Shown here: positions 537 through 58,560 of the stretch, in pieces
How the letters are laid out: every line of letters starts with the position of its first letter
Numbering within the stretch: the first letter of the stretch is position 1
Assembly (NCBI GenBank): GCA_949432885.1
Contig: CASQXY010000008.1
Location: 663 to 64,662, forward strand
Origin: an uncultured bacterium
Lineage (GTDB): Bacteria > Bacillota > Clostridia > Christensenellales > CAG-917
Length of the DNA stretch: 64,000 nucleotides
Direction: 5' to 3'
Made by a program: the position numbers and the translations under genes
The notes under the pieces: model-generated
The model's database searches: none
What the model was told of the DNA's origin: nothing
What the model saw: only the letters and a program-made list of their open reading frames with translations

Positions 537-2840
537 TTACTTAGCGCTATCCGCTCTTTTCTTATTCTTCGGATTTAGCTTTGAGAAAAACGAGTTTACG
601 TCGATTTTACCCAAGTTGTTCAAAACTATAATCGTAATTATGCCTGCCCACAGTGCGAGGAAGATGAACAGCGTCCACCACCACGAGCCTATCAGATATA
701 TCATCATGGATACGGCGTAGGACACGATCACCCAGAACAGCAACGTCATGCGGAAGGACTTCTTGCTCGGCGACTCCGCCTTAGCGGTAGCGACAGCCGC
801 AAAGCACGGTATCGTGAGCATATTGAACGCTATAAACGCTATCAGACCGGGAATGCCAATACCCGTCGCTCCGATAAGCGCTTCTATTGAGTCTACGCCG
901 CCGAGAGCTTCGTCCGCAACGAAACCGCTGACCACACATGCCGCAAGCGTTCCAAATGTAGCTATAACGTTCTCCTTTGCGATGAGTCCAGTTATTGCCG
1001 CGACCGCGAACACCCAACCGAACGAGCCTAGCTGACTGCCGAAGCCTACGGGCGTAAAGAGCGGTTGAATAAGCTGACCTATGTTTGCGAGGATACTGTT
1101 GTTCATCTCCTCGTCGGGGAGATAGCCCCAACTCCAAGAGAAGTGACTGAAAAACCAGATAGCTATCGTTGATACGAGTATGATTGTAAACGCTTTCTTT
1201 ATAAAGTGTTTGAGCTTATCCCACAGGTGAAGCATAAGGTTTTTGAACTGCGGCGCGTGATAGGCGGGCAACTCCATGATAAACGGCGGAACTTCGCCTT
1301 TCATAGTGGTATTGCGCATAAGCAGTACGGCGCAGATTGCGACGACTATGCCGAGCAAATACATACTGTACGTAATTATATCGGCGTTGTTTATATTCGC
1401 CAAAGTCAGTATGCCGCCCGAAACCGCCGTCAGAATAGGCAATTTCGCTCCGCAGCTGAAAAACGGAATTACTCTGAGCGTAGCCGTCCTTTCGTTCTGG
1501 TCCGCCAGCGTTCTTGTATTTATCATCGCGGGAACGGAACAGCCGAAGCCCATTATCATCGGCATAAACGCTCTGCCCGACAAACCGAATTTTCTGAAAA
1601 TTCTGTCCAGTATAAACGCGACTCGCGCCATATAACCGCTGTCTTCGAGAATAGAAAAAAACAGGAACAACAACAGGATCTGAGGCAGGAAGCTCAACAC
1701 CGAAAACAGACCTCCGAGCACGCCGTCGCATATAAAACCCGTCGCCCACTCGGCAACACCGCCGCTTTCCATTGCGCCGCGTATTGCGTCTGTAAGAGAA
1801 TCCGTGCCAAGGCCGAGCAAGTTCTGCAAAAACACTCCGGGTGAATTGATTCCGCTCTCTCCGAACAGCCCTTCCGCGGCTGTGCCTTCCAGCGAAACCC
1901 ACCCTTCGGGCAGACCATAGCCTATAAACAGGAAGTTTTCGGAGAACGTAAGATGGAATACCGCAAAAAGAATAAGCAGGAAAATTGGAATACCCCAAAT
2001 CTTATGCGTAAGCACCCTGTCCGCTTTATCCGAGCGCGACAGCTTTTCCTTTTCATTACCCTTGTTCTTCACTACGACGGACGAATAATTTTTGGAGATA
2101 TACTTATATCTGCTGTCGGCGACTATCGCCTCGAAGTCGCTTCCGAACGTATCATCCTCGAAAGTCTGCTTGAACTCCTCGACCATATGAGCGGATTCGG
2201 GGTGCATTTTAACTTCGATTTCGTCAAGCTCCACAAGCTTAATCGCATGGAAAAGCGAATTGTCCACCTTCTGACCTTCGAGCGCGATTTTGCAGTCGCG
2301 TATAAGGTGCATAAGTTGGGTTCCGTCGAGTACGGTAGAGCCCGTTCTCGGCTCTTTGGATATCTCGTACGCGCGCCTCATAAGCTCGTCGAGTCCGCTT
2401 TCTTTAAGCGCGGATATTGCGACTACCGGCAGCCCCATCTTTTCTTCGAGCTTTTCGGGGTCGATTTTATCCCCGTTTTTCTCGACCGCGTCCATCATAT
2501 TAAGAGCAATGACGATAGGAACGTCGATTTCCATAATCTGAGTGGTGAGATACAGATTCCTTTCGAGATTGGTTGCGTCTATTATGTTTATGATACAATC
2601 GGGCTTTTCATCGAGTATGTAATTTCTCGAAATGACTTCCTCGGGAGTATAGGGCGACAGCGAATATATCCCCGGCAAATCGACTATGGCGATTGGCTCG
2701 CCGCACTTTTTGTACACGCCTTCCCTTTTATCTACTGTCACGCCCGGCCAGTTGCCTACGTGCGCGGTAGATCCCGTAAGGCTGTTGAACAACGTGGTTT
2801 TGCCGCAGTTGGGATTTCCCGCAAGAGCAAACTTTTTCAT
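537..2840 (-). CDS. feoB: Ferrous iron transport protein B
   Basis: 767 aa. It has an N-terminal small-GTPase domain (GNPNCGKTTLFN, DLPG) and a polytopic C-terminal gate domain. Its start overlaps the feoA stop by 4 nt. Confidence 0.97.
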   Translation of the reverse strand: MKKFALAGNPNCGKTTLFNSLTGSTAHVGNWPGVTVDKREGVYKKCGEPIAIVDLPGIYSLSPYTPEEVISRNYILDEKPDCIINIIDATNLERNLYLTTQIMEIDVPIVIALNMMDAVEKNGDKIDPEKLEEKMGLPVVAISALKESGLDELMRRAYEISKEPRTGSTVLDGTQLMHLIRDCKIALEGQKVDNSLFHAIKLVELDEIEVKMHPESAHMVEEFKQTFEDDTFGSDFEAIVADSRYKYISKNYSSVVVKNKGNEKEKLSRSDKADRVLTHKIWGIPIFLLILFAVFHLTFSENFLFIGYGLPEGWVSLEGTAAEGLFGESGINSPGVFLQNLLGLGTDSLTDAIRGAMESGGVAEWATGFICDGVLGGLFSVLSFLPQILLLFLFFSILEDSGYMARVAFILDRIFRKFGLSGRAFMPMIMGFGCSVPAMINTRTLADQNERTATLRVIPFFSCGAKLPILTAVSGGILTLANINNADIITYSMYLLGIVVAICAVLLMRNTTMKGEVPPFIMELPAYHAPQFKNLMLHLWDKLKHFIKKAFTIILVSTIAIWFFSHFSWSWGYLPDEEMNNSILANIGQLIQPLFTPVGFGSQLGSFGWVFAVAAITGLIAKENVIATFGTLAACVVSGFVADEALGGVDSIEALIGATGIGIPGLIAFIAFNMLTIPCFAAVATAKAESPSKKSFRMTLLFWVIVSYAVSMMIYLIGSWWWTLFIFLALWAGIITIIVLNNLGKIDVNSFFSKLNPKNKKRADSAK

Positions 2841-3172
2841 ACGTCAGCCTCCTCTTCCGTTTTGCGGCTTTTACTCTTAAAAAAGCCGAATCTCTTCTGC
2901 TTCTTTTCCTCTTTCGCGGAATTGAGTCTGCGCTCCTCGTCCTCGGAGCACTCACAGGTAACCGCCTGTGCCTCCGTGTTTCTGAGCGTAAGCTCGTAAC
3001 CGCGCATCGTCACCTCTATCGGGTCGCCGAGAGGCGCTTTTTTTCTGAGCGTTACGTCCGCTCCGGGAGTAACGCCCATATCGAACAGTCTTCGTCTGAT
3101 TTTTCCGTCGCCTCCGACGGCGGTTATGACGCCCGACTGTCCGATTATGAATTGGTCAAGTGTCTTTTTCAT
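2837..3172 (-). CDS. feoA: FeoA-domain protein with a charged C-terminal tail of about 35 aa
   Basis: FeoA/SH3-like core (GQSGVITAV...RRRLFDMGVTPGADVTL). It is translationally coupled to feoB. Confidence 0.85.
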   Translation of the reverse strand: MKKTLDQFIIGQSGVITAVGGDGKIRRRLFDMGVTPGADVTLRKKAPLGDPIEVTMRGYELTLRNTEAQAVTCECSEDEERRLNSAKEEKKQKRFGFFKSKSRKTEEEADV

Positions 3173-3182
3173 ATCTGCTCCT

Positions 3183-3395
3183 TTATGCCACTAAAATTTT
3201 TGTCGCAAGATTTTTGTCAAGAGCGAGACGGCCGTCCTTTATCATACAGATTGTACTGCCTCCGCTCTGAGACACGATACTTATCGTGGACGACAGCGTA
3301 ATCCCGAGACTTTCCAGATGCTTTTTCGTCTTATCGTCGGTAAGTATCTTAACGATTCTAAGCTCTCTGCCTATCGGCGCAACTACAAGCGGCAT
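3183..3395 (-). CDS. feoA: FeoA-domain protein (second copy, 70 aa)
   Basis: Short FeoA fold (LRIVKI...LESLGI...G..I). It is the first gene of the feo operon. Confidence 0.85.
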   Translation of the reverse strand: MPLVVAPIGRELRIVKILTDDKTKKHLESLGITLSSTISIVSQSGGSTICMIKDGRLALDKNLATKILVA

Positions 3396-3436
3396 AAACC
3401 CTCCCGTTTCATATTGTAATCGATTGGGATTGCAAA

Positions 3437-3532
3437 TGTGAAACTTATTTCATATTTTTAGCGAATACATAATAGCACCGAGAATAAAATTCCGTCAACC
3501 GTTTTTATTAAAAATATGAAAAATTTTTCACA
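3437..3532. promoter_or_regulatory. Pair of inverted 18-bp operator-like sites in the feoA/tetR divergent region
   Basis: The sites are TGTGAAACTTATTTCATA (3437-3454) and TATGAAAAATTTTTCACA (3515-3532). The reverse complement of the second matches the first at 15/18 positions. Each is internally palindromic (TGAAA..TTTCA). Confidence 0.4.
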
Positions 3533-6881: not shown

Positions 6882-9389
6882 CTATTTCAACGCGCCCCAG
6901 TCCTCCGCCGACGCTGCGTTCGCCACAAGCGGCACTTTGAGCTTAACCGCCCTTTCCATCTCGCAGATGAGAATATTCATAACCTCGTCCGCCTCGTCCT
7001 TAGCCGCGTCGATAATAAGCTCGTCGTGTATCTGTAAAATCATCTTGGACTTTTTGTCCTTCAAGCGGTTTTCGACGTCTATCATCGCCAGCTTGATTAT
7101 ATCAGCCGCCGACCCCTGCAAAGGAGTATTCATTGCCATACGTTCCGCCGCCGAACGCACAGGATAACTCGAAGCGTTCAAGTCTGACATATTTCGCCGC
7201 CTGCCTAGCATAGTTATTGCATAGCCCTTTTCTCTCGCCTCGCGCACGCACCCGTCCATGTAATCTCGCACGTCGGGGTGCTCCGTGAAATAATTGGCGA
7301 TGAACTCTCGCGCCTTATATTGCGGAATAGATAGGTTTTCGGCAAGTCCGAATCCGCTTATCCCGTATATGATGCCGAAATTGACCGCCTTTGCGTCCCT
7401 GCGCTGCGCGGCAGTAACCTGTGATATAGGTATCCCGAGTATCTGCGACGCGGTTATCGCATGGATATCATCTTCATTGTTGAACGCGTCTATAAGCTGT
7501 TTGTCGCCGCTCATATGGGCGAGCAGTCTAAGTTCTATTTGAGAGTAATCAGCAGAAACGAGCACGTTTCCCTCGCTTGGCAAAAACGCGCTCTTTATGT
7601 CCTTTGCCTCCTCACTGCGCGTGGGGATATTCTGCAAATTGGGATTGGTGGACGACAGTCTGCCCGTAGTCGTCACGCATTGATTAAACTCCGTATGGAT
7701 ACGTCCTCTGTTTATCAGCGGCTGAAGCCCTACGACGTAAGTCGATTGGAGCTTAGAGTAATGTCGATATTCCAAAATATCCTTCACTATGGGGTGAGCG
7801 TTGACCAGATTCGCAAGCACGTCCTCGCTCACGGAATAACCCGTCTTTGTCTTTTTGCCGTGCGGCAATCCAAGTTTGTCAAACAGAATTTCGCCAAGTT
7901 GCTTGGGCGACGCGATATTAAAAACGCACCCCGCTCCGTCGTATATGCGCTTTGCAAGTCTGTCTATAATTTCGCCGTATTTAGATTCCAACTCCTTCAA
8001 TTTGTCGTACGAAACGTGCACTCCGCGCTCTTCCATATTGCGCAAAACCACGCAAAGCGGCTGTTCAACCTCAAAAAACAACTTGTAAAGTTGCTTTTCG
8101 TGTAATAAGGCGGTCAATTTATCGCATTCCGCAAACAGTTCCGCCGCTCCGACGGAGTAGCCGTCTGCTCCCAAAACCTGCGCAAGACTCTTTATGGGCG
8201 CACTCTCGCGTGCAAGGTGCGCGGCAATCATAACGTCGAAGAATTTTTCGTTTTGAAAGCCGTATTTCTTGGAAAGAGATTTAAAATCGTAACAGACGAG
8301 CTCCTTATCCGCCGTGCCCTTGCGCACGATTTCAATCGCGTCGTCGAAGAACATTCCGTCGCTGAATAAGTCCTCTGCGCAGTTGACAACATACTCCGTC
8401 CTGCCGTCCACAGAGAAAGAAACGTTATCGTCGATAACAAGCGCGACCCTGTCCCCCGCCAGCGCGGAATTTATTTCCTCTGCGGATTTCAGCGCCACAG
8501 TGTTCTTATCGAATTCCTGCGGAGTCGGCTCGCTTTCGTCAAACTTCATCCTGCTTGCAAGCGTTGATATTTCAAGCTCCGCGAGCTTTGCTTTTACCTC
8601 CTGCGTGTATACGGGAGTAAACTTCAAATCGTCCAGCGTACACTCTACGGGCACGTTTAAATCTATTGTGGCAAGCCTTCTGCTGAGCAATGCGGAATCT
8701 CTGCCGTTCTGGACCTTTTCTCCCAATTTACCCTTTATATCCGCCGCATGCTCCAACACTCCGTCCAGCGAACCGAAATCGGCAATCAACTGCTTTGCGG
8801 TCTTCTCACCGACGCCGGGGATACCGGGTATATTGTCGGACGGGTCTCCCATAAGCGCTTTATAGTCTATGAACTGCGCCGTAGTAAAGCCGTCCGAAAG
8901 CAGTCGCGCTTCGTCGTAAATCTCTATCTCAGTGACTCCGCGCTTCGTCCAGAATACGCGCGTGCTCGGACTTACGAGCTGAAAACTGTCGCGGTCGCCC
9001 GTCACAATAATGCTTTCGTCGTCAAAACGCCTCGACAACGTGCCCAATATGTCGTCGCCCTCGTAACCTTGAAGACTTACGATTTTTATACCCATCGCCG
9101 TAATCAGACTTTTGAGAGGCTCCACCTGCTGGCGAAGCTCCTCGTCCATAGGCTTGCGCGTCGCCTTGTAGCCGTCGTACATTTCGTGTCTGAAAGTCGG
9201 TCCTTTGAGGTCGAACGCCGCTGCGATATGCGTGGGCTGCTGCTCCTTGATAAGTCTGAGCAAAATATTCAAAAATCCGAAAATCGCACCCGTATACTGA
9301 CCTGTGGTCGTTTTTAAGTTCGGCAAAGCGTGATATGCCCGGTGCATAAGACTGTTGGAATCCAAAAGCAATATTCTGTTCTTTGACAT
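6882..9389 (-). CDS. polA: DNA polymerase I
   Basis: 835 aa. It has a 5'-nuclease N-terminus, motif A (VSADYSQIELRLLAH) and motif C (LQIHDELIID). Confidence 0.97.
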   Translation of the reverse strand: MSKNRILLLDSNSLMHRAYHALPNLKTTTGQYTGAIFGFLNILLRLIKEQQPTHIAAAFDLKGPTFRHEMYDGYKATRKPMDEELRQQVEPLKSLITAMGIKIVSLQGYEGDDILGTLSRRFDDESIIVTGDRDSFQLVSPSTRVFWTKRGVTEIEIYDEARLLSDGFTTAQFIDYKALMGDPSDNIPGIPGVGEKTAKQLIADFGSLDGVLEHAADIKGKLGEKVQNGRDSALLSRRLATIDLNVPVECTLDDLKFTPVYTQEVKAKLAELEISTLASRMKFDESEPTPQEFDKNTVALKSAEEINSALAGDRVALVIDDNVSFSVDGRTEYVVNCAEDLFSDGMFFDDAIEIVRKGTADKELVCYDFKSLSKKYGFQNEKFFDVMIAAHLARESAPIKSLAQVLGADGYSVGAAELFAECDKLTALLHEKQLYKLFFEVEQPLCVVLRNMEERGVHVSYDKLKELESKYGEIIDRLAKRIYDGAGCVFNIASPKQLGEILFDKLGLPHGKKTKTGYSVSEDVLANLVNAHPIVKDILEYRHYSKLQSTYVVGLQPLINRGRIHTEFNQCVTTTGRLSSTNPNLQNIPTRSEEAKDIKSAFLPSEGNVLVSADYSQIELRLLAHMSGDKQLIDAFNNEDDIHAITASQILGIPISQVTAAQRRDAKAVNFGIIYGISGFGLAENLSIPQYKAREFIANYFTEHPDVRDYMDGCVREAREKGYAITMLGRRRNMSDLNASSYPVRSAAERMAMNTPLQGSAADIIKLAMIDVENRLKDKKSKMILQIHDELIIDAAKDEADEVMNILICEMERAVKLKVPLVANAASAEDWGALK

Positions 9390-17947: not shown

Positions 17948-17971
17948 ATTATACTCTATCGGATACAAAAT

Positions 17972-18064
17972 GCGAAAGAGGCATTTTTGCGAACCGCCTA
18001 ATGTACTGACGTACATGACGGCAAGCAAAAATGCCTCTGACAAGGTTATGCGCCAAATAGCGCG
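17972..18064 (-). repeat. Bulged long-hairpin element, copy 1 (3 nt after the gpmI stop)
   Basis: Minus strand reads ...UUGUCAGAGGCAUUUUUGC-UU-GCCGUC-AUGUAC-GUCA-GUACAU-UA-GGCGGU-UC-GCAAAAAUGCCUCUUUCGC. The outer stem is a perfect 14 bp (17977-17990 with 18025-18038). Related copies lie at 19734-19829, 21026-21146 and 58438-58560. Confidence 0.7.
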
Positions 18065-18067
18065 GTT

Positions 18068-19633
18068 TTACTTGGTTATACTAGCGTCCCAGTGCCCGTC
18101 AGCCTCAAACCCCATCAAATTTGCGACGGTCGCCGCTACGTTGGACAGACCGAATTCACCGTCCGCAATTTCGCAATCCGCATTATATACTACAAACGGC
18201 ACGACGTTCAAGCTGTGCGCCGTACGTACGGCAAGCTCGCCCTTCTTGTTTTTTTCCAACATTTCGTCGGCGTTGCCGTGGTCTGCCGTGACGGCAAGTA
18301 TATAGTTATTGCGCTTAACTACGGGCAGCAGCCTCGCAAGAGCAAGGTCGACCGCCTCCACTCCTATTATTGTAGCGGGGAGGCTTCCCGTATGTCCGAC
18401 CATATCGCCGTTGGGATAATTGCAACGTATAAATCCGTATTCGCCGCTCTCGATTGCCTCTATGACCTTATCGGTAACCTCTGCGGATTTCATCCAAGGT
18501 CTTTGGTCGAAGGACACCTTATCGCTGGGCACCTCCTCCCATACTTCCAGCTTATCGTCGAATTTCTCCGAGCGGTTGCCGTTCCAGAAATATGTTACAT
18601 GTCCGTATTTTTGCGTTTCGGACACCGCGTAGGACTTCACTCCCAGCTCGACAAGCCTTTCGCTGAGCGTATATTTTATTTGCGGCGGCTCCACAAGGAA
18701 ACGCCTCGGCAAATGCAAGTCGCCGTCGTATTGAAGCATGCCTGCGTACTTCACCGCGGGCATTTCTCCTCTGTCAAAGCCGTCGAAGTCGGCGTTATCG
18801 AATGCCATAGACAATTCGATGGCTCTATCGCCGCGGAAGTTGAAAAGAATCACACAGTCTCCGTCCTTCATTGCGCCGACAGGCCGTCCTCCCTCTTTTA
18901 TCACAAACGCAGGCAAATCTTGGTCGATAATTCCTTCGTTCTCGCATCTGTACGTTTCGATAGCCTCGCGCGCGGTGGCGAAGCCTCTGCCCGCGCCGTA
19001 AACGTGCGTATAGAAGCCCGATTTCACCATATCCCAGTTGGCGAAATATCTATCCATAGTTATCTTCATACGTCCGCCGCCCGAAGCGATTTTCGCGTCG
19101 AAACCGCAATCGTTAAGTTGCGAAAGCGCCTCTTCAAGCATATCGACGTATGTAAGCGCGGAGGTTGCGGGCACGTCTCTGCCGTCAAGCAGGATATGCA
19201 CGCGCACGCGCTTTATACCCTCCGCCTTTGCTTCGCGTATAAGTGAAAGCAGATGTCCGATATTGCTGTGCACGTTTCCGTCCGAAAGCAAGCCTATGAA
19301 ATGCATTGCGGAGCCGTTTTCAACGCAGGTGTTTTTAAGCTCCTGCCAAGCGGCGGATTTGTAGATATCGCCGCTTTCGATAGCCTCTTCGACGAGCTTA
19401 GCGCCCTGAGAGTACACCTGTCCGCAACCGAGAGCGTTGTGCCCGACCTCGCTGTTGCCCATATCCTCGTCCGACGGAAGGCCGACGGCGGTGCCGTGAG
19501 CCTTTACGTATGTATGCGGACATTCCGCCAGCAATTTGTCAAGCGTAGGCGTATTCGCCAACGTCACTGCGTCGCCGAGCCCTGTTTTTGACTTTCCGAC
19601 GCCGTCCATAACTACAAGTAAGAGTTTGTTCAT
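18068..19633 (-). CDS. gpmI: 2,3-bisphosphoglycerate-independent phosphoglycerate mutase
   Basis: 521 aa. MGNSEVGHNALG active-site Ser region and a metalloenzyme C-terminus (TADHGNAD). Confidence 0.97.
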   Translation of the reverse strand: MNKLLLVVMDGVGKSKTGLGDAVTLANTPTLDKLLAECPHTYVKAHGTAVGLPSDEDMGNSEVGHNALGCGQVYSQGAKLVEEAIESGDIYKSAAWQELKNTCVENGSAMHFIGLLSDGNVHSNIGHLLSLIREAKAEGIKRVRVHILLDGRDVPATSALTYVDMLEEALSQLNDCGFDAKIASGGGRMKITMDRYFANWDMVKSGFYTHVYGAGRGFATAREAIETYRCENEGIIDQDLPAFVIKEGGRPVGAMKDGDCVILFNFRGDRAIELSMAFDNADFDGFDRGEMPAVKYAGMLQYDGDLHLPRRFLVEPPQIKYTLSERLVELGVKSYAVSETQKYGHVTYFWNGNRSEKFDDKLEVWEEVPSDKVSFDQRPWMKSAEVTDKVIEAIESGEYGFIRCNYPNGDMVGHTGSLPATIIGVEAVDLALARLLPVVKRNNYILAVTADHGNADEMLEKNKKGELAVRTAHSLNVVPFVVYNADCEIADGEFGLSNVAATVANLMGFEADGHWDASITK

Positions 19634-19733
19634 AATTATCCTTTAAATTTTTTGTTTTAAAAGCGTTCAACTAGAATGCTTTATTGAAATCACTCGGATT
19701 AGCGCATTCGCCAGTTAAAATTCTATATCGGTT

Positions 19734-19829
19734 GCATAGCGCGAAAGACGAGCACGCGAGTCGACCGGTGTATCTTCGTACACGACGACAAGCGCGCGCA
19801 AGTCTGACAAAGCTATGCGAAAATGCGAA
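19734..19829 (-). repeat. Bulged long-hairpin element, copy 2 (2 nt after the tpiA stop)
   Basis: Same architecture with a GC-rich outer stem (GCGCGC/GCGUGC) and lower helix GUCGUC/GUCGAC. An extra closing pair GCATAGC (19734-19740) / GCTATGC (19812-19818) is present. It shares the flanks UUGUCAGA and UCUUUCGC. Confidence 0.65.
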
Positions 19830-19831
19830 TT

Positions 19832-20584
19832 TTAGTAATTGACTACGTTAGAGAAGTCAACCGCCTTCAACGAAGCTCCGCCGATAAGTCCGCCGTCGAT
19901 TTCGGGCATAGCCATAAGCTCTTTGACGTTCTTGGGATTCATGCTTCCGCCGTACTGAATACGCACTCTGTTCTCGGCGCACTTGGGGCAGTAAAGCTCC
20001 GCCATAACCTTTCTGATGATTGCGATAGTCTCGTTTGCGACCTCTGCCGTTGCGGTCTTGCCCGTGCCGATAGCCCAAACGGGTTCATATGCGATTACGA
20101 TATTGTCAAGCTCGTCCTTGTCGATACCCGCAAACGCGCCCTTGGTCTGGCGTACGAGCACTTCTTCCACCTTACCAGCTTCGCGCTCTTCGAGCGTTTC
20201 GCCTACGCAGACAATAGGTTTGAGTCCAGCCGCAAGAGCAGCCTTCGTCCTCGCGTTGACAGTCTCGTCCGTCTCAGCAAAATACTGACGGCGCTCGCTG
20301 TGTCCGATGATGACGTACTCAACGCCGAGCTCGACGAGCATCTTTGCGGATATCTCACCCGTAAACGCTCCTTTATCAGCCCAGTGCACGTTTTCCGCTC
20401 CGACCTTGATATTCGTACCCTTGGTCAATTCTACTGCCGCCGCAAGGTCGGTGTACGGCGTGCATATAACCACGTCGCACTGCGCGTCCTTAACGAGCGG
20501 AATGAGCTCGTTTACAAGAGCCTTGGTCTCTGCGATTGTATTGTTCATTTTCCAGTTTCCTGCGATGATTGCTTTTCTTGACAT
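19832..20584 (-). CDS. tpiA: Triosephosphate isomerase
   Basis: [25 protein letters not shown] motifs. 250 aa. Confidence 0.97.
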
Positions 20585-20645
20585 ATTTTCACCTCTGAAA
20601 ATTTTTTATTATTAACAATAGTTAACATTACTTTACTTATTGCAC

Positions 20646-21146
20646 GTCGGGGTCTCTAAATAGAATAACCCCCTTCCTCAGATGTTCCCCTATTGCGGTC
20701 TCTCACATTTAACTCCGTCAAACAGGGACGTTTGACGGAGACCCCAAGTGAGCCTCTCCGCAAGTCTTACGACGTGGGAACACAACGCGATTGGACTTTC
20801 AGTCAACAATCGCTATTCCGTCGCTACGCTTCTTACGGCGCTCGCATATACAAGCATAAAGCTCTGCTTATGCCACTCGCTCGGGAGCGAATAAACGGGA
20901 CTCACTACCTCGCTTGTACAAAGCGTCAAGCTCGGCACTCGAATGGCGCGCGCCTTGCACGCGCTGGTGCAGTCTCTTGATAAAGTGCACGGCGTATTCG
21001 ATTCTTATCAAACTTAATTGCACGGAATAATGCGATATTTGGATGAAGAGCAAGGAAGACGAGCACACGAGCCGCCAAACGTACTTGCGTACGTGACGGC
21101 GAGTGCGCACAGTCTGACAAAGCTATTCGCCAAATAGCGCGTTATT
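20646..21146 (-). repeat. Composite structured element of about 500 nt filling the pgk-tpiA spacer (hairpin module 21026-21146 plus a 380-nt module)
   Basis: The hairpin copy has a GCAA tetraloop. Its outer inverted repeat AATAATGCGATATTTGG / CCAAATAGCGCGTTATT overlaps the pgk stop. The remainder shares ordered blocks with 23281-23564 and 58081-58437. Confidence 0.7.
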
Positions 21147-22452
21147 CATTTAGACAGGCAATGCCGGGAAGGACTTTACCTTCCAAAAACTCCAACGACG
21201 CGCCGCCGCCCGTAGAAATATGAGACATCTTGTCCGCAAAGCCGAGCTGGGCGACCGCCGCCGCGCTGTCTCCGCCGCCGATGATGGTTGTTGCGTCCGT
21301 CTCCGCCATAGCCTTTGCGACAGCGATTGTGCCTTGCGCGCAGGTGGGGTTCTCAAACACGCCCATAGGTCCGTTCCATACGACGGTCTTCGCGCTCTTT
21401 ATGGCTTCGGCAAACAGCTCCTGCGTTTTTACGCCGATATCGAGTCCCATTTTATCTGCGGGAATGGACATACTCTCCACGCACTCAACCTCGATAGGAG
21501 CGTTGATTGGGTCGGGGAATGCAGGGGCGACCATAGTGTCCACAGGCAGATAGATAGTCTTGCCGAGGGACTTTGCCTTTTCAAGCATGCTCTTGCAGTA
21601 TTCAACCTTCTCCTCGTCGACCAAGGAAGTGCCTATTGTACCGCCCTGCGCCTTGATGAAGGTATACGCCATACCGCCGCCGATGATAAGAGTGTCGCAC
21701 TTCCCGAGCAGATTGTCGATAACGTTGAGCTTATCGGCAACCTTAGCGCCGCCGAGAATAGCGACGAAAGGACGTACGGGATTTTCAACGGCATTGCCGA
21801 GGAATTTCAATTCCTTTTCGATAAGGAAGCCGCTGACCGCGGTCTTTGCAAAGCCGTACTGAACGATGCCCGCCGTCGTCGCATGCGCGCGGTGCGCCGT
21901 GCCGAACGCGTCGTTGACGTACACATCGCAGAAATCCGCAAGCTGTCGGCAAAGCTCCTCGCTGTTCTTCTCCTCGCCTGCATAGAAACGGGTGTTTTCA
22001 AGCAACACGATTTCCCCTTCCTTCATAGCCGCGACCTTTGTATGCGCGTCCTCTCCTACGAGGTCGCAAGCAAACTTGACTCTGCCGGGGAAGAGCTCCG
22101 CAAGTCTGTCCGCAACGGGTTTGAGCGTAAATTTCTTTTGGTCGTTTTTCAATGCCTTTGCGATATACTCCGCCTTCGCCGCCTCTCTCTCGTTTTCGGG
22201 AAGAGCCTCAACCGCCTTTTTCTCCTTCTTATTGAGTCCGAAGCCCTCGGTGAAAATATTGTGCGGCTTACCCATATGCGAGCACAGTATCACCTTCGCG
22301 CCGTGATTTACGAGATACGTGATAGTGGGAAGCGCGCCGTTGATACGGTTCTCATCGGTGATAACGCCGTCCACCATAGGAACGTTGAAATCGCATCTGC
22401 ACAGGCATTTTTTGCCCTGTACGTCAATGTCGCGGATTGTCAGTTTTGCCAT
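21142..22452 (-). CDS. pgk: Phosphoglycerate kinase (436 aa, with an insertion of about 40 aa)
   Basis: [18 protein letters not shown] motifs. There is extra charged sequence at about aa 65-106. Confidence 0.97.
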
Positions 22453-22752: not shown

Positions 22753-23238
22753 TCAATACTTCGTCAGGCGTCCCTGCTCCAAAAGGTTCGCGCCGCCAGT
22801 CTGGCGTATCGCCTCGTATACGACTATCGCCACGGAGTTGGAAAGGTTGAGGCTTCTCGCCTCGGATATCATAGGTATGCGTATCGCTCTGTCATAGTTG
22901 TCGCGCAGAAGTTCTTCGGGCAGCCCCTTTGTCTCCTTGCCGAACACGAGATAGTCTCCCTCGCGGAAATCCGCGCCGTCATATCTCTTTGCTCCTTTTG
23001 TCGTCAGATACCAAAACCGACCGTCTGCGTTTTTTTCAAAAAATTCGTCGAGATTTTCATACACAATGAAGTCCGTAAGGTGCCAGTAATCCAATCCCGC
23101 GCGCTTCAACGCCCTGTCGCTTATGTCAAATCCGAGCGGCTTGACAAGGTGGACCTTGCTTCCCGTCGCCGCCGCGGTGCGCACTATGTTACCTGTGTTC
23201 TGCGGTATTTCAGGTTCGACTAAAACTATATTAAACAT
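22753..23238 (-). CDS. trmL: tRNA (cytidine/uridine-2'-O-)-methyltransferase TrmL (SpoU family)
   Basis: 161 aa. LVEPEIPQNTGNIVRTAAATG and the SPOUT knot C-terminus (LNLSNSVAIVVYEA). Confidence 0.9.
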   Translation of the reverse strand: MFNIVLVEPEIPQNTGNIVRTAAATGSKVHLVKPLGFDISDRALKRAGLDYWHLTDFIVYENLDEFFEKNADGRFWYLTTKGAKRYDGADFREGDYLVFGKETKGLPEELLRDNYDRAIRIPMISEARSLNLSNSVAIVVYEAIRQTGGANLLEQGRLTKY

Positions 23239-23280
23239 ATTCTTTTCCTTTACAAAAACTGCTAGTTTTATACTTTAATT

Positions 23281-23564
23281 GAAAAGCCCCCTCTTTCCCT
23301 TCGGGCTTTTCTCCCACCACTCGAATTAGGAACGTACACTATTTAACGTTCCGTCGCTCGCGGAGGGAGACACTCGGCGCTCGCATATACAAGCTTAGAA
23401 CACTGTTTATATCACTCGTTCGCGGACTTAAACAACAATGTCCGCTCACTTGTACGGAACGTCAAGCTCGGCACTCAGGTAGGCGCGCGCCCTGCACGCG
23501 CTATGCAGCTCCTTGAACGACGACTCGTCGTATTCACACTCGTTCAAGCCGATGAGATTATATA
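23281..23564 (-). repeat. Structured element, 284-nt module only (begins immediately after the dus stop at 23565-23567)
   Basis: It shares blocks and hairpins with 20646-21025 and 58081-58437. The terminal stem is GAAAAGCCC/GGGCTTTTC (23281-23311). The 8-bp hairpin lies at 23483-23501. There are four CGAGUG motifs on the minus strand. Confidence 0.65.
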
Positions 23565-24491
23565 TCAATCGTGTAAAAATTGCTCTATTATCCTTAAAAC
23601 ATCTGAGATACTCTTTGCTTCGCCGACGGCTACGCGCACGGCTTTGGCATGGTCCGAGCCTTTGGCGTAGTGGCAAAGCTGCAACTTCATTACGTTTGCA
23701 ATCACTCTGTCGGGCATATAACTGCGCAGAATTTGTATATGCTCTCTTGCCGTCTCCGCTCTGTCGAATTCAAAGGGCTTGTCCGCAAGCTCCGCGAAAA
23801 TGTAAGGTCTGCCCAGCGCGCCGCGGCCTATCATAAATCCGTCCGCGCCCGACTCCTCTCTGACCCTTTCGAGACTTTTTCTATCCGTTATATCGCCGCT
23901 GGCAATAACAGGTATGGAAACCGCCTCTTTGACCTCGCGCGTAATCGAGTGATCGGCGGCTCCGCTGTAAAACTGCGTCCTGTATCTTGGATGTACGGTG
24001 ACCGCCGCCGCGCCGCTTTTTTCCGCGGCGAGAGCGCATTGAACGGCAAGCGGCTTACCCTCCTCGATGCCCGCTCTCATCTTTACGGTCACTGGCTTGC
24101 CCGACCCCTCGCGCGCCGCATGCACAAGCTCTGCGAGCAGAACTGTATCCGTCATAAGCGCGCTTCCGTCTCCGTTGCCGAAAATCTTCTTGACAGGGCA
24201 GCCCGCGTTTATATCGATTACGTCGAATTTTTGAAGCCTTTCGTCCTTTGCGGCCCTGTACATAAATTCGGGCTCGTGTCCGAACAGCTGTACCGCGCAG
24301 GGGCTGTCGAGAGAAGCCAAAAGCTCGTTATTCTCTCTGCCGTTATAGATTATCCCCTTTGCGCTTATAAGCTCCGTATAAGTAAGCCCCGCGCCGTAAC
24401 GCGAACATAAATGCCTCATCGCAACGTCGGAAAAACCCGCAATCGGAGCAAAGAGCAAATCGCTTTCAAGCTGTACGTTTGCTATATGCAT
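23565..24491 (-). CDS. dus: tRNA-dihydrouridine synthase
   Basis: TIM-barrel Dus motifs (LAPIAGFSD, DINAGCPVKK, VTVKMR). Confidence 0.92.
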   Translation of the reverse strand: MHIANVQLESDLLFAPIAGFSDVAMRHLCSRYGAGLTYTELISAKGIIYNGRENNELLASLDSPCAVQLFGHEPEFMYRAAKDERLQKFDVIDINAGCPVKKIFGNGDGSALMTDTVLLAELVHAAREGSGKPVTVKMRAGIEEGKPLAVQCALAAEKSGAAAVTVHPRYRTQFYSGAADHSITREVKEAVSIPVIASGDITDRKSLERVREESGADGFMIGRGALGRPYIFAELADKPFEFDRAETAREHIQILRSYMPDRVIANVMKLQLCHYAKGSDHAKAVRVAVGEAKSISDVLRIIEQFLHD

Positions 24492-57271: not shown

Positions 57272-57291
57272 GATTAAAGCATATTTATTGT

Positions 57292-57319
57292 AAAAACAGC
57301 GCGAAACGCGCTGTTTTTA
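57292..57319. terminator. Bidirectional rho-independent terminator after glyQS
   Basis: ACAGCGCG-AAA-CGCGCTGT is flanked by A5 and T5. Confidence 0.85.
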
Positions 57320-57331
57320 TTAATTCCCAAA

Positions 57332-57544
57332 TTATTGAACCGAATTTATACTGATTCTGGTATCTGGCTCATCAATCATACTTGAAACTATCAAATTATC
57401 CGAAATTGTGGATTTATCAATATTCAATTCGATTATTTCTAAAATATAATTTCTCAAATCGACTTCATTTTTTATAATACGTTTATCCGCATCATAAAAA
57501 ATCGTTTCAATATTACTTTCGCATTTCTTTTGGTTTTGTTGCAT
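57332..57544 (-). CDS. Hypothetical 70-aa ORF in the AT-rich islet (possibly a gene fragment)
   Basis: AT-rich composition with no convincing RBS. The longer 90-aa version overlaps the XRE gene start on the opposite strand. Confidence 0.3.
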   Translation of the reverse strand: MQQNQKKCESNIETIFYDADKRIIKNEVDLRNYILEIIELNIDKSTISDNLIVSSMIDEPDTRISINSVQ

Positions 57545-57551
57545 AAAAGCA

Positions 57552-57965
57552 TTGATTGAAGACGAGGGCTTATCGCTTCGCGCGTTCGCAGAAGCCGTCG
57601 ACATTCCGTATCAAGAAGTATACGCCTATGAAAATGACGGATATTTACCATCTGTATATAATGCGGAAAAAATCGCGTTGTTTTTCGATTGCTCTTTTGA
57701 TTATCTTTTCGGAGTATCAAACACTTTTAAGCAGACAACGTATAAAAAAGTAGATATTTCTCTGTTTTATCCTAGATATAAAGAACTTTTAGAGAAAGAG
57801 AAAGTAAGCCATTATAATTTACATAAAACTATTAAATTGAATAATTCCAGTATAACAAAGTGGAAAAACGGTTCTGTTCCAAGAATAGAAAGTTTAATAA
57901 AAATTGCTACCCGCTTTTCAACTCATATTGACTACCTAGTCGGTCGTAGCGATAGTCGGTACTAA
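57552..57965 (+). CDS. XRE-family protein with two tandem HTH_3 domains (start codon unclear)
   Basis: GLSLRAFAEAVDIPYQEVYAYENDGYLPS...FDYLFG and SHYNLHKTIKLNNSSITKWKNGSVPR...IDYLVG. The frame is open from 57498 with no upstream ATG; only TTG codons at 57537 and 57552 are available. Confidence 0.6.
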   Translation: MIEDEGLSLRAFAEAVDIPYQEVYAYENDGYLPSVYNAEKIALFFDCSFDYLFGVSNTFKQTTYKKVDISLFYPRYKELLEKEKVSHYNLHKTIKLNNSSITKWKNGSVPRIESLIKIATRFSTHIDYLVGRSDSRY

Positions 57966-57983: not shown

Positions 57984-58018
57984 TCAGTTGGGTATTATCA
58001 CTGACCAACTGATTTTTT
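57984..58018 (+). terminator. Rho-independent terminator of the XRE gene
   Basis: CAGTTGG-(13 nt)-CCAACTG followed by T7. Confidence 0.7.
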
Positions 58019-58080
58019 TATACACCTTATCAGAATAAGGGTGACTTGGTCTACAAGGGTAGACGGCGTATACTCTAAAA

Positions 58081-58560
58081 AGAAATTGCCCCCTCTTTCA
58101 CTTCGGGTATTTCTCCCACCACTCGAATTAGAAAAGTAGTCTTTTTTACTCTCCGTCGCTCGCGGGGGAGACAGTCGGCACTCGCCTATTGTCATATTAT
58201 TCTATCTATGTCACTCGGTCGCAAACGTAAATTAATAAAGCTCGTTTGCTCCCTAGTACTGCGAAGCTCGGCTCGGCACTCACGGGGCGTTCGCCCTGCG
58301 AACGCTGGCAGTCTCTTGAAAAAGTGCATGTCGTGTACACACCCGCACAAGCTAAGTGCAAGCGCTTTAAGTGCGCAATTAGTCTCTTGAATTATGACTC
58401 ATAGTTCTCTCCACCTTATCAATCTAAGCGTTAAATCAAAACTTCATCATTAAGAGAAGAACGCGAAAGAGACATTTTTGCGAACCGCCTAACGTACTGA
58501 CGTACGTGACGGCGAGCAAAAATGCCTCTGACAAAGTTATTCGCTTAATGATGAAGTTTT
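58081..58560 (-). repeat. Composite structured element (hairpin module 58438-58560 overlapping the rex stop, plus a 357-nt module 58081-58437)
   Basis: The 17-bp perfect outer stem AAAACTTCATCATTAAG / CTTAATGATGAAGTTTT encloses a core hairpin nearly identical to the copy at 17972-18064. The rest shares ordered blocks and covarying hairpins with 20646-21025 and 23281-23564. Confidence 0.7.

Follow-up and report, generated by a model that had tools for sequence, protein, structure and literature searches.

The 557-nt non-coding spacer between pgk and tpiA is filled by two juxtaposed elements, P (21025-21147) followed by S (20641-21012), which are members of two dispersed families of non-coding repeats of an uncultured Christensenellales-like Clostridium. 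S probably represents a new family of interspersed repeats, BOX-like and non-autonomous, whose copies would be transcribed with their neighbours and fold as RNA. We found no literature description of either family. The general kind, that of interspersed, modular, structured intergenic repeats, is known, and S departs from it in its size, its direct terminal repeats and its strongly conserved single-stranded motifs.

The initial annotation had treated the spacer as one structured element of about 500 nt within a normally compact glycolytic operon. We found instead two adjacent repeat families, the first ~120 nt (21025-21147) being a separate long palindrome that had gone undescribed. The pgk-tpiA spacer is not compact in this lineage, spanning 174-567 nt in relatives, and S, which occupies about 40 unrelated intergenic places, is not specific to the glycolytic operon.

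The window (the whole stretch of 64,000 nucleotides analysed) holds three good matches to a covariance model of the S 5′ core, all on the minus strand. That these three loci share a series of ordered blocks had already been noticed, and their homology was borne out by blastn (72-75% identity), by MAFFT, which recovered the ordered blocks, and by the covariance model. The P family, first seen by blastn and then delimited with nhmmer, has four copies in the window and others in relatives. Together S and P take up about 2% of the window DNA, and the window ORFs scanned against Pfam are housekeeping genes. A marginal covariance-model match at 8191-8311 on the plus strand (15.2 bits, E = 0.009) lies within an 835-aa ORF (6882-9389) and is probably due to chance. 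The genes and repeats concerned are as follows.

17965-18062, minus strand: P after gpmI (nhmmer 93.3 bits, fold)
18068-19633, minus strand: gpmI (iPGM)
19733-19828, minus strand: P after tpiA (nhmmer 81.2 bits, fold)
19832-20584, minus strand: tpiA
20830-20981, minus strand: core match of S copy 1 (162.7 bits)
21025-21147, minus strand: P after pgk (inverted repeat I1, nhmmer family, fold)
21142-22452, minus strand: pgk, stop codon at 21142-21144
22753-23238, minus strand: trmL/SpoU
23277-23550, minus strand: S copy 2, between dus and trmL, with 3′ domain variant A and without P
23369-23517, minus strand: core match of S copy 2 (151.7 bits)
23565-24491, minus strand: dus
58008-58431, minus strand: S copy 3, full length, in the convergent spacer of rex and an XRE-HTH gene, with direct repeats D1 and D2
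58170-58320, minus strand: core match of S copy 3 (141.4 bits)
58438-58560, minus strand: P after rex (inverted repeats I1 and I2, fold)

Modular anatomy of S and P

S copy 1 is ~370 nt long and consists, in order, of a leader, a conserved 5′ core, a 3′ domain, a purine tail and a linker.

20981-21012, minus strand: leader, UUUGAUAAG...GCACUUUA (alignment of 28 extended copies)
20830-20981, minus strand: conserved 5′ core (covariance model, 162.7 bits)
20969-20980, minus strand: core block UCAAGAGACUGC
20946-20964, minus strand: hairpin H1, AAG loop
20930-20940, minus strand: core block GAGUGCCGAGC
20883-20909, minus strand: hairpin H2b, variable stem and U-rich loop
20868-20879, minus strand: core block CGAGUGGCAUAA
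20836-20845, minus strand: core block GCGAGCGCCG
20669-20829, minus strand: 3′ domain variant B (same domain in other copies; MFE fold)
20817-20829, minus strand: variant B segment GCGUAGCGACGGA
20787-20813, minus strand: variant B hairpin
20776-20783 with 20682-20690, minus strand: variant B closing helix, GUGUUCCC / GGGGAACAU
20713-20740, minus strand: optional inserted 11-bp hairpin of variant B
20669-20681, minus strand: SD-like purine tail CUGAGGAAGGGGG
20641-20668, minus strand: truncated 3′ linker (UUAUUCUAUUUAGAGACCCCGACGUGCA); most copies have the consensus linker UUUUAGAGUACCCGCCGU

The same frame recurs across the family. On the minus strand the leader reads YUUGAUAAGGUG...UUCAAGAGACUGC, that of copy 1 being a degenerate version of the terminal direct repeat/linker YTTGATAAGGTG. 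H1 is a 5-8-bp GC hairpin with an AGG/AAG loop, and H2b, between blocks GAGUGCCGAGC and CGAGUGNNAUAA, has a 7-9-bp stem of variable sequence and a U-rich loop. After CGAGUGNNAUAA come an AU-rich hairpin region of copy-variable sequence and the block GCGAGYGCCGA; the purine tail is GAAAGAGGGGG or GAGGAAGGGGG, and the linker UUUUAGAGUACCCGCCGU...CACC..CAGCUUGAUAAGGUG. The 8-bp hairpin originally placed at 20946-20964, 23483-23501 and 58287-58305 lies exactly there, and the three versions differ, as had been said, by two compensated pairs (CG to UA, GC to UA) and one change of U.G to C-G. The counts of CGAGUG given for copies 1, 2 and 3 (2, 4 and 3, minus strand) are also exact. Shuffled sequence yielded 28.15 matches per 128 kb on both strands, or 0.066 per 300 nt, in agreement with the chance rate of ~0.07 first proposed, and the repeated CGAGYG motif is genuine.

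Downstream of the core, the family has a set of interchangeable 3′ domains. A and A′ are two of them, and A′ also exists in a version with an 80-nt insert; B either carries or lacks the inserted hairpin, and C is compact. The distal part thought to be peculiar to copy 1 is such an alternative domain, variant B, common to at least 7 copies elsewhere (L014, L017, L020, L024, L026, L033 and L038); the insert is present in copy 1, L020, L026 and L033 and missing from L014, L017 and L038. An inverted-repeat search agrees with the perfect 11-bp hairpin reported in this insert. The helix said to enclose it, GGGGTCTC/GAGACCCC, is genuine, and by eye the equivalent segments pair in two of the three other insert-bearing copies; GAGACCCC, in the linker of copy 1, pairs with GGGGUCUC at 20738-20745.

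S modules vary in number and order around this constant frame, as in BOX-like modular repeats. The leader/H1 module is present 1-3 times and is repeated in L006 and in copy 3, where a further leader module, a partial one, lies at 58362-58391. In L010, L019, L023 and L042, S copies stand in tandem arrays and share the linker. In full-length copies the final ~12-35 nt repeat the initial ones; copy 3, for example, is bounded by 35-nt direct repeats (58397-58431 and 58008-58042) of 71% identity. Units measure ~280-550 nt, their 5′ and 3′ ends are ragged, and partial copies exist.

Of 32 copies, 30 retain the purine tail. In the window it lies at 20669-20681, 23287-23299 and 58089-58101, and none of the three tails has a start codon within ~15 nt. 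Pairing with a generic 16S 3′ end is predicted at -11.4 to -16.2 kcal/mol (-16.2 for copy 1), compared with -6 to -12 kcal/mol for the SDs of neighbouring genes (-11.7 for that of tpiA). Since no start codon follows, the tail may be an orphan SD, which could bind the 30S subunit and so stabilise or protect the downstream message. The STAB-SD mRNA stabilisers of Bacillus are reportedly SD-like purine tracts of this sort without a start codon. The S tail resembles them in a predicted 16S pairing as strong as, or stronger than, that of the neighbouring genes' SDs, and differs in lying at the 3′ end of a repeat rather than at a defined mRNA 5′ end; any stabilising role is putative.

P is ~125 nt long, and every copy folds as a single imperfect hairpin of 55-65 bp. 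It has conserved islands (CGAAUAAC-UUUGUCAGA, UCGCCGUCACGUAC-loop-GUACGUUAGGCGG and UCUUUCGCGUUCUUCAU), and its outer and middle stems vary among copies yet remain complementary. The copy after pgk has 18-nt terminal arms (21130-21147 and 21025-21042) and a conserved inner hairpin (21072-21102), and starts at the final pgk codon and stop (GAA TAA, stop 21142-21144). The copy after rex has 25-nt arms of 92% complementarity, the left of which takes in the last eight rex codons and the stop. P lies 57-144 nt upstream of S, in the same orientation and with a conserved junction, in 11 of 37 S copies, and the two often adjoin in mosaic combinations.

The stop codon of the upstream gene starts the hairpin and sits at the base of the 55-65-bp stem (G-TAA-AACCGCG... 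or ...GAA-TAA-C) in every P examined, namely the four in the window and those of L007, L014, L017, L036, L044 and L048-L050. The right arm of the rex P is complementary to the last eight rex codons, and the C-terminus they encode is ancestral (KTSSLSE*, versus KTPPLGE* in the syntenic L066); the pgk C-termini of close relatives diverge (LNE*, KH*, AQIDE*) precisely at the start of P. This pattern suggests either that insertion is targeted to stop codons or that the arms are templated from local sequence. The number of P copies in the pgk-tpiA spacer also varies: L048-L050 (3205-3510), contigs that encode an identical TIM (P0010), have a single P or else one or two together with a partial copy, which is consistent with unequal recombination between tandem P copies.

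Folding and covariation of S

The description of the element as structured was well founded: it is non-coding and highly folded, and it carries genuine compensatory changes. In the seed alignment H1 is 100% and H2b 96% paired, and 7 of 7 H2b pairs covary. When 39 distinct sequences were aligned to the model, 91% of cells proved to be paired; shuffles gave 73% (0 of 500 reach 91%) and slid partners 18-58%. Many of the counts given in this section are inherited and not independent. Compensatory changes affect 6 of the 9 pairs in the helix that closes 3′ domain A; variants B and C are closed by GUGUUCCCCC/GGGGGAACAC. Much of this covariation may come from swaps of whole hairpin alleles rather than from independent compensatory mutations.

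For copy 1 the MFE is -141.8 kcal/mol on the minus strand (z = -5.5) and -126.3 kcal/mol on the plus strand (z = -4.4). Pairs of the G.U/U.G type number 37 and those of the A.C/C.A type 14, and the predicted fold shows a weak preference for the minus strand of the window, on which S would fold as RNA. The most conserved blocks of S, GAGUGCCGAGC, CGAGUGNNAUAA and GCGAGYGCCG, which vary little or not at all between species, are predicted to be unpaired, and the U-rich loop on the variable stems is semi-conserved, with its UGUU core kept. Conserved single-stranded blocks alongside variable stems are more typical of functional RNA than of junk.

Three further pairings were considered and set aside. 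Helix H2a (GCUUG/CAAGC) is only 71% paired and is missing from two subfamilies; helix H3 lacks covariation; and for GAGAC of the first block and GUCUC of the 3′ domain, a possible long-range pair, the variants show no covariation by eye. In divergent S copies (L027/L041 1760-1910, L042, L043 and L045), H1 is a 5-bp GCCGC/GCGGC stem extended by tandem G.A/A.G mismatches (CGAG...CGAG). Tandem G.A mismatches are a motif typical of RNA helices.

Distribution and variation at orthologous sites

Scanning one genome per species for an exact pattern yielded 36 loci, and the S core model gave 42 matches in the Clostridia loci that were fetched. Ten of the 36, from other phyla (Accumulibacter, Acidobacteria, Planctomycetia and others), are chance pattern matches, since the covariance model matches none of them. 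S is present in at least 8 Christensenellales-like genomes. One Clostridia MAG (CANDBF01) carries about 21 copies over 17 contigs, and the other genomes with S are gut and rumen MAGs labelled as Clostridia or Christensenella; TIM homologues place the window lineage in Christensenellales/Clostridia. A metagenome scan with a three-block pattern added only 3 loci.

Comparison with databases upheld the earlier failure to assign the element to a known RNA class. None of the 4227 families of Rfam 15, among them HEARO, ROOL, GOLLD, OLE, raiA, group I/II introns, T-box, 6S, tmRNA, RNase P and the IS605-orfB motifs, matched the window at the gathering score; at E<=10 the three S copies gave only snoRNA-type noise, and S from L014, L021, L041 and L042 gave nothing at E<=0.5. 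Blastn of S against plasmid and phage collections gave no match, and viral contigs scanned for the S pattern gave 0 matches. Resemblances to group II intron domain V, tRNA, RNase P and single-strand origins were considered and had no supporting match.

All 28 copies analysed are intergenic. The upstream gene is co-oriented with S in 19 of 23 cases, and the downstream gene is co-oriented or convergent. No protein gene recurs near S in all-vs-all clustering, which took in ORFs of at least 90 aa throughout the fetched loci and, up to 1.5 kb from ~35 copies, those of 40-200 aa; TnpB, IscB, reverse transcriptase and integrase were considered as partners, and none is a recurrent neighbour. A consensus scan of the pgk-tpiA interval found no promoter or intrinsic terminator belonging to S, and the sole promoter-like site upstream of tpiA is that of pgk (22546-22518). 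Since this is the only such site, tpiA would be read through P and S, and S would lie within the pgk-tpiA RNA.

An XRE-HTH gene adjoins S in the window, in L039 and in L014, and was considered as a linked gene. The candidate was rejected, as L066 has HTH genes as ancestral rex neighbours without S. In the window the glyS-rex islet (57272-57965) comprises a small reverse ORF and an XRE-HTH gene whose product has two HTH domains; in L066 the syntenic interval (1579-3444) has three tandem HTH paralogues. In L014 (349-1995), a small XRE-HTH gene and a 109-aa ORF rich in Cys lie between two inverted S copies whose 5′ ends face each other, an arrangement that looks like a composite cassette.

Orthologous sites differ in whether they carry S. 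On contigs that encode one identical TIM (P0002, 93% identical to that of the window), the pgk-tpiA spacer is either 200 nt with P only (L044) or 567 nt with P and a reversed S (L045). The difference between them is not a simple insertion: ~104 nt are replaced by ~470 nt. Relatives with 92% TIM identity have one or two P and no S in this spacer, and those with 85% identity have neither. The dus-trmL spacer of relatives is about 100 nt and lacks S, and the syntenic glyS-HTH-rex locus of L066 has a 150-nt spacer without S or P. L064, which encodes an identical TrmL (1-420, compared with window 23230-23700), keeps the 3′ half of copy 2 and its flank, has a different family allele of H2b, and has P upstream. 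This swap shows gene conversion or module exchange between dispersed copies. We conclude that S is an insertion and not a glycolytic regulator, since it is absent or reversed in the same spacer of relatives and its hairpin module was swapped in a near-identical strain.

S is short, non-coding, dispersed in many copies and polymorphic among strains, as interspersed repeats are. It sits in intergenic DNA just 3′ of genes, and a given site in close relatives may hold it, lack it or hold it inverted. Modules are gained, lost and exchanged as copies recombine, and S would be co-transcribed with the upstream gene. It might spread through a trans-acting transposase or recombinase, or through recombination that involves the common linker. 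As a side effect, S could buffer the pgk-tpiA transcript, and the upstream hairpins could block 3′ exonucleases. Against a mobile repeat stand the lack of terminal inverted repeats and the lack of a readable target-site duplication; the one clean comparison for such duplications, L044/L045, is a replacement, and the other empty sites are too diverged to read. S is not demonstrably a MITE, as its copy 3 ends in direct and not in inverted repeats (P does have inverted arms of 18-25 nt).

Alternative readings and comparison with known systems

S might instead be a functional structured RNA class. It could present about five CGAGYG sites between its hairpins and so act as a scaffold or sponge, or it could have a tertiary fold or a catalytic role; its many copies would then recall HEARO RNAs at a time when these had no known function. 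The single-stranded blocks are invariant in at least 8 genomes while the stems covary, the UGUU loop core stays as stems vary, some H1 variants have tandem G.A pairs, the SD-like tail is so widely kept, and S has a strand bias relative to upstream genes. A class of this kind is hard to reconcile with the presence, absence and inversion of S at the same locus among near-identical strains, with ragged ends, partial copies and mosaic 3′ domains, with the failure to find a conserved promoter or terminator, or with a narrow taxonomic range and so few further metagenomic matches. We consider this reading possible but unlikely. Slightly less likely is that S is an unrecognised large structured RNA class with a biochemical role, as a multi-site protein- or ribosome-binding scaffold or the RNA part of a trans-encoded mobility system, spread through Christensenellales as HEARO was before it was identified as a guide RNA. 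P, whose hairpins engulf stop codons, could then be part of one system with S.

Both strands of S fold far better than shuffles, as would be expected if S acted as DNA, with single-stranded hairpins as substrates for recombination or transposition (REP/BIME-like or attC-like) and the CACTCG repeats as protein-binding sites. Module exchange and tandem arrays imply frequent recombination, one S copy is inverted relative to transcription, and the adjoining P is a perfect candidate for a DNA cruciform or hairpin. The pairing itself points the other way: the conserved U.G of H1 becomes a C.A mismatch on the opposite strand, and G.U pairs exceed A.C pairs. The orientation bias with respect to upstream genes also argues against action as DNA, which we judge to be quite improbable.

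Many HEARO copies reportedly lack an adjacent ORF, and HEARO was known as a multi-copy RNA before it was identified as the IscB guide RNA. S is likewise large, ornate, multi-copy and mobile-looking, and similar in size to HEARO / IscB omega-RNA (RF02033). At 300-500 nt and often without an adjacent ORF, and with its orientation bias, S could be an orphan guide or scaffold RNA, comparable to the omega-RNAs that accompany IscB or TnpB or to the bridge RNA of IS110; it could also form the non-coding end of a transposon, RNA-guided or single-strand, with the protein encoded elsewhere in the genome. Unlike HEARO, it matches no covariance model of HEARO or any other Rfam family even at E<=10, has no IscB/HNH ORF beside any copy (a nuclease or transposase gene adjoins 0 of about 37) and has no guide-like variable end; by eye, its variable single-stranded segments are 3-7 nt, with no hypervariable stretch of at least 10 nt. 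An orphan guide RNA is therefore very unlikely.

Control of tpiA by S as a cis-regulatory leader (a riboswitch or attenuator) would suit a large, structured element on the sense strand of the tpiA 5′ region. Other copies precede trmL, or no gene at all in convergent spacers, so the downstream genes are unrelated; S is missing or antisense at tpiA of relatives; and it lacks a terminator/anti-terminator architecture. This highly improbable reading is already contradicted. So is the least credible of all, that a small spacer-encoded protein accounts for the conservation: ORFs of 80-95 codons do lie at 20693-20980 (+) and 20868-21110 (-), but the spacer has, as first thought, no credible ORF, since no ORF is conserved among S copies, no frame is open across the core in most of them, 1-, 2- and 4-nt indels separate copies inside conserved blocks, and the 95-codon antisense ORF is missing from copies 2 and 3.

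Interpreted as a BOX-like repeat, S has a close analogue in its mode of organisation alone, and no sequence similarity is claimed. BOX, RUP and SPRITE are parasitic repeats that are transcribed with their neighbours, have a modular or terminator-like build and are enriched 3′ of genes, and BOX of Streptococcus pneumoniae has the form boxA-boxB(n)-boxC and is typically <200 nt (PMC3049150). BOX and S are both non-coding, modular, variable in module number, intergenic, often co-transcribed (putatively so in S) and narrow in taxonomic range, with dozens to about 100 copies per genome; both have extensive predicted RNA structure in which loss or repetition of a module leaves the rest intact, and recombination changes the size of both between strains (PMC3049150). 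S differs from BOX in its ~280-550 nt per unit, in terminal repeats that are direct and not inverted, in having no demonstrable target-site duplication, and in its long invariant single-stranded blocks.

BOX is the analogue of S, and the terminator-like SPRITE that of P (PMC3049150), and S and P both look selfish. Like SPRITE, REP/BIME, ERIC and Correia-type repeats, P is a multi-copy, terminator-like long hairpin right after coding regions and oriented with the gene (PMC3049150, PMC3733652). REPs are 20-40-bp palindromes, one end of which bears an unpaired tag, GTAG or CGTC (PMC3733652). P differs from SPRITE and REP-type palindromes in its length (~125 nt versus 20-40 nt for REPs), in having neither an unpaired GTAG/CGTC tag nor a good U-tract, in a left arm that holds the upstream stop codon, and in stems that are copy-variable yet complementary. 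We rejected REP as an identity for either family, as P has CGTC inside the stem at ~125 nt and S is not a simple palindrome.

The combination of invariant single-stranded motifs, covarying stems and an SD-like tail makes S a reasonable candidate for a functional RNA; if it were such a class, it would be much more interesting than as a repeat. Christensenellales are prominent, health-associated and mostly uncultured gut bacteria, and to our knowledge their non-coding genome is essentially undescribed. The present analysis defines two abundant repeat families in this order. These repeats account for long, variable spacers in conserved operons of these bacteria; they will confound operon and ncRNA prediction as well as MAG assembly, and they are usable as strain-level markers.
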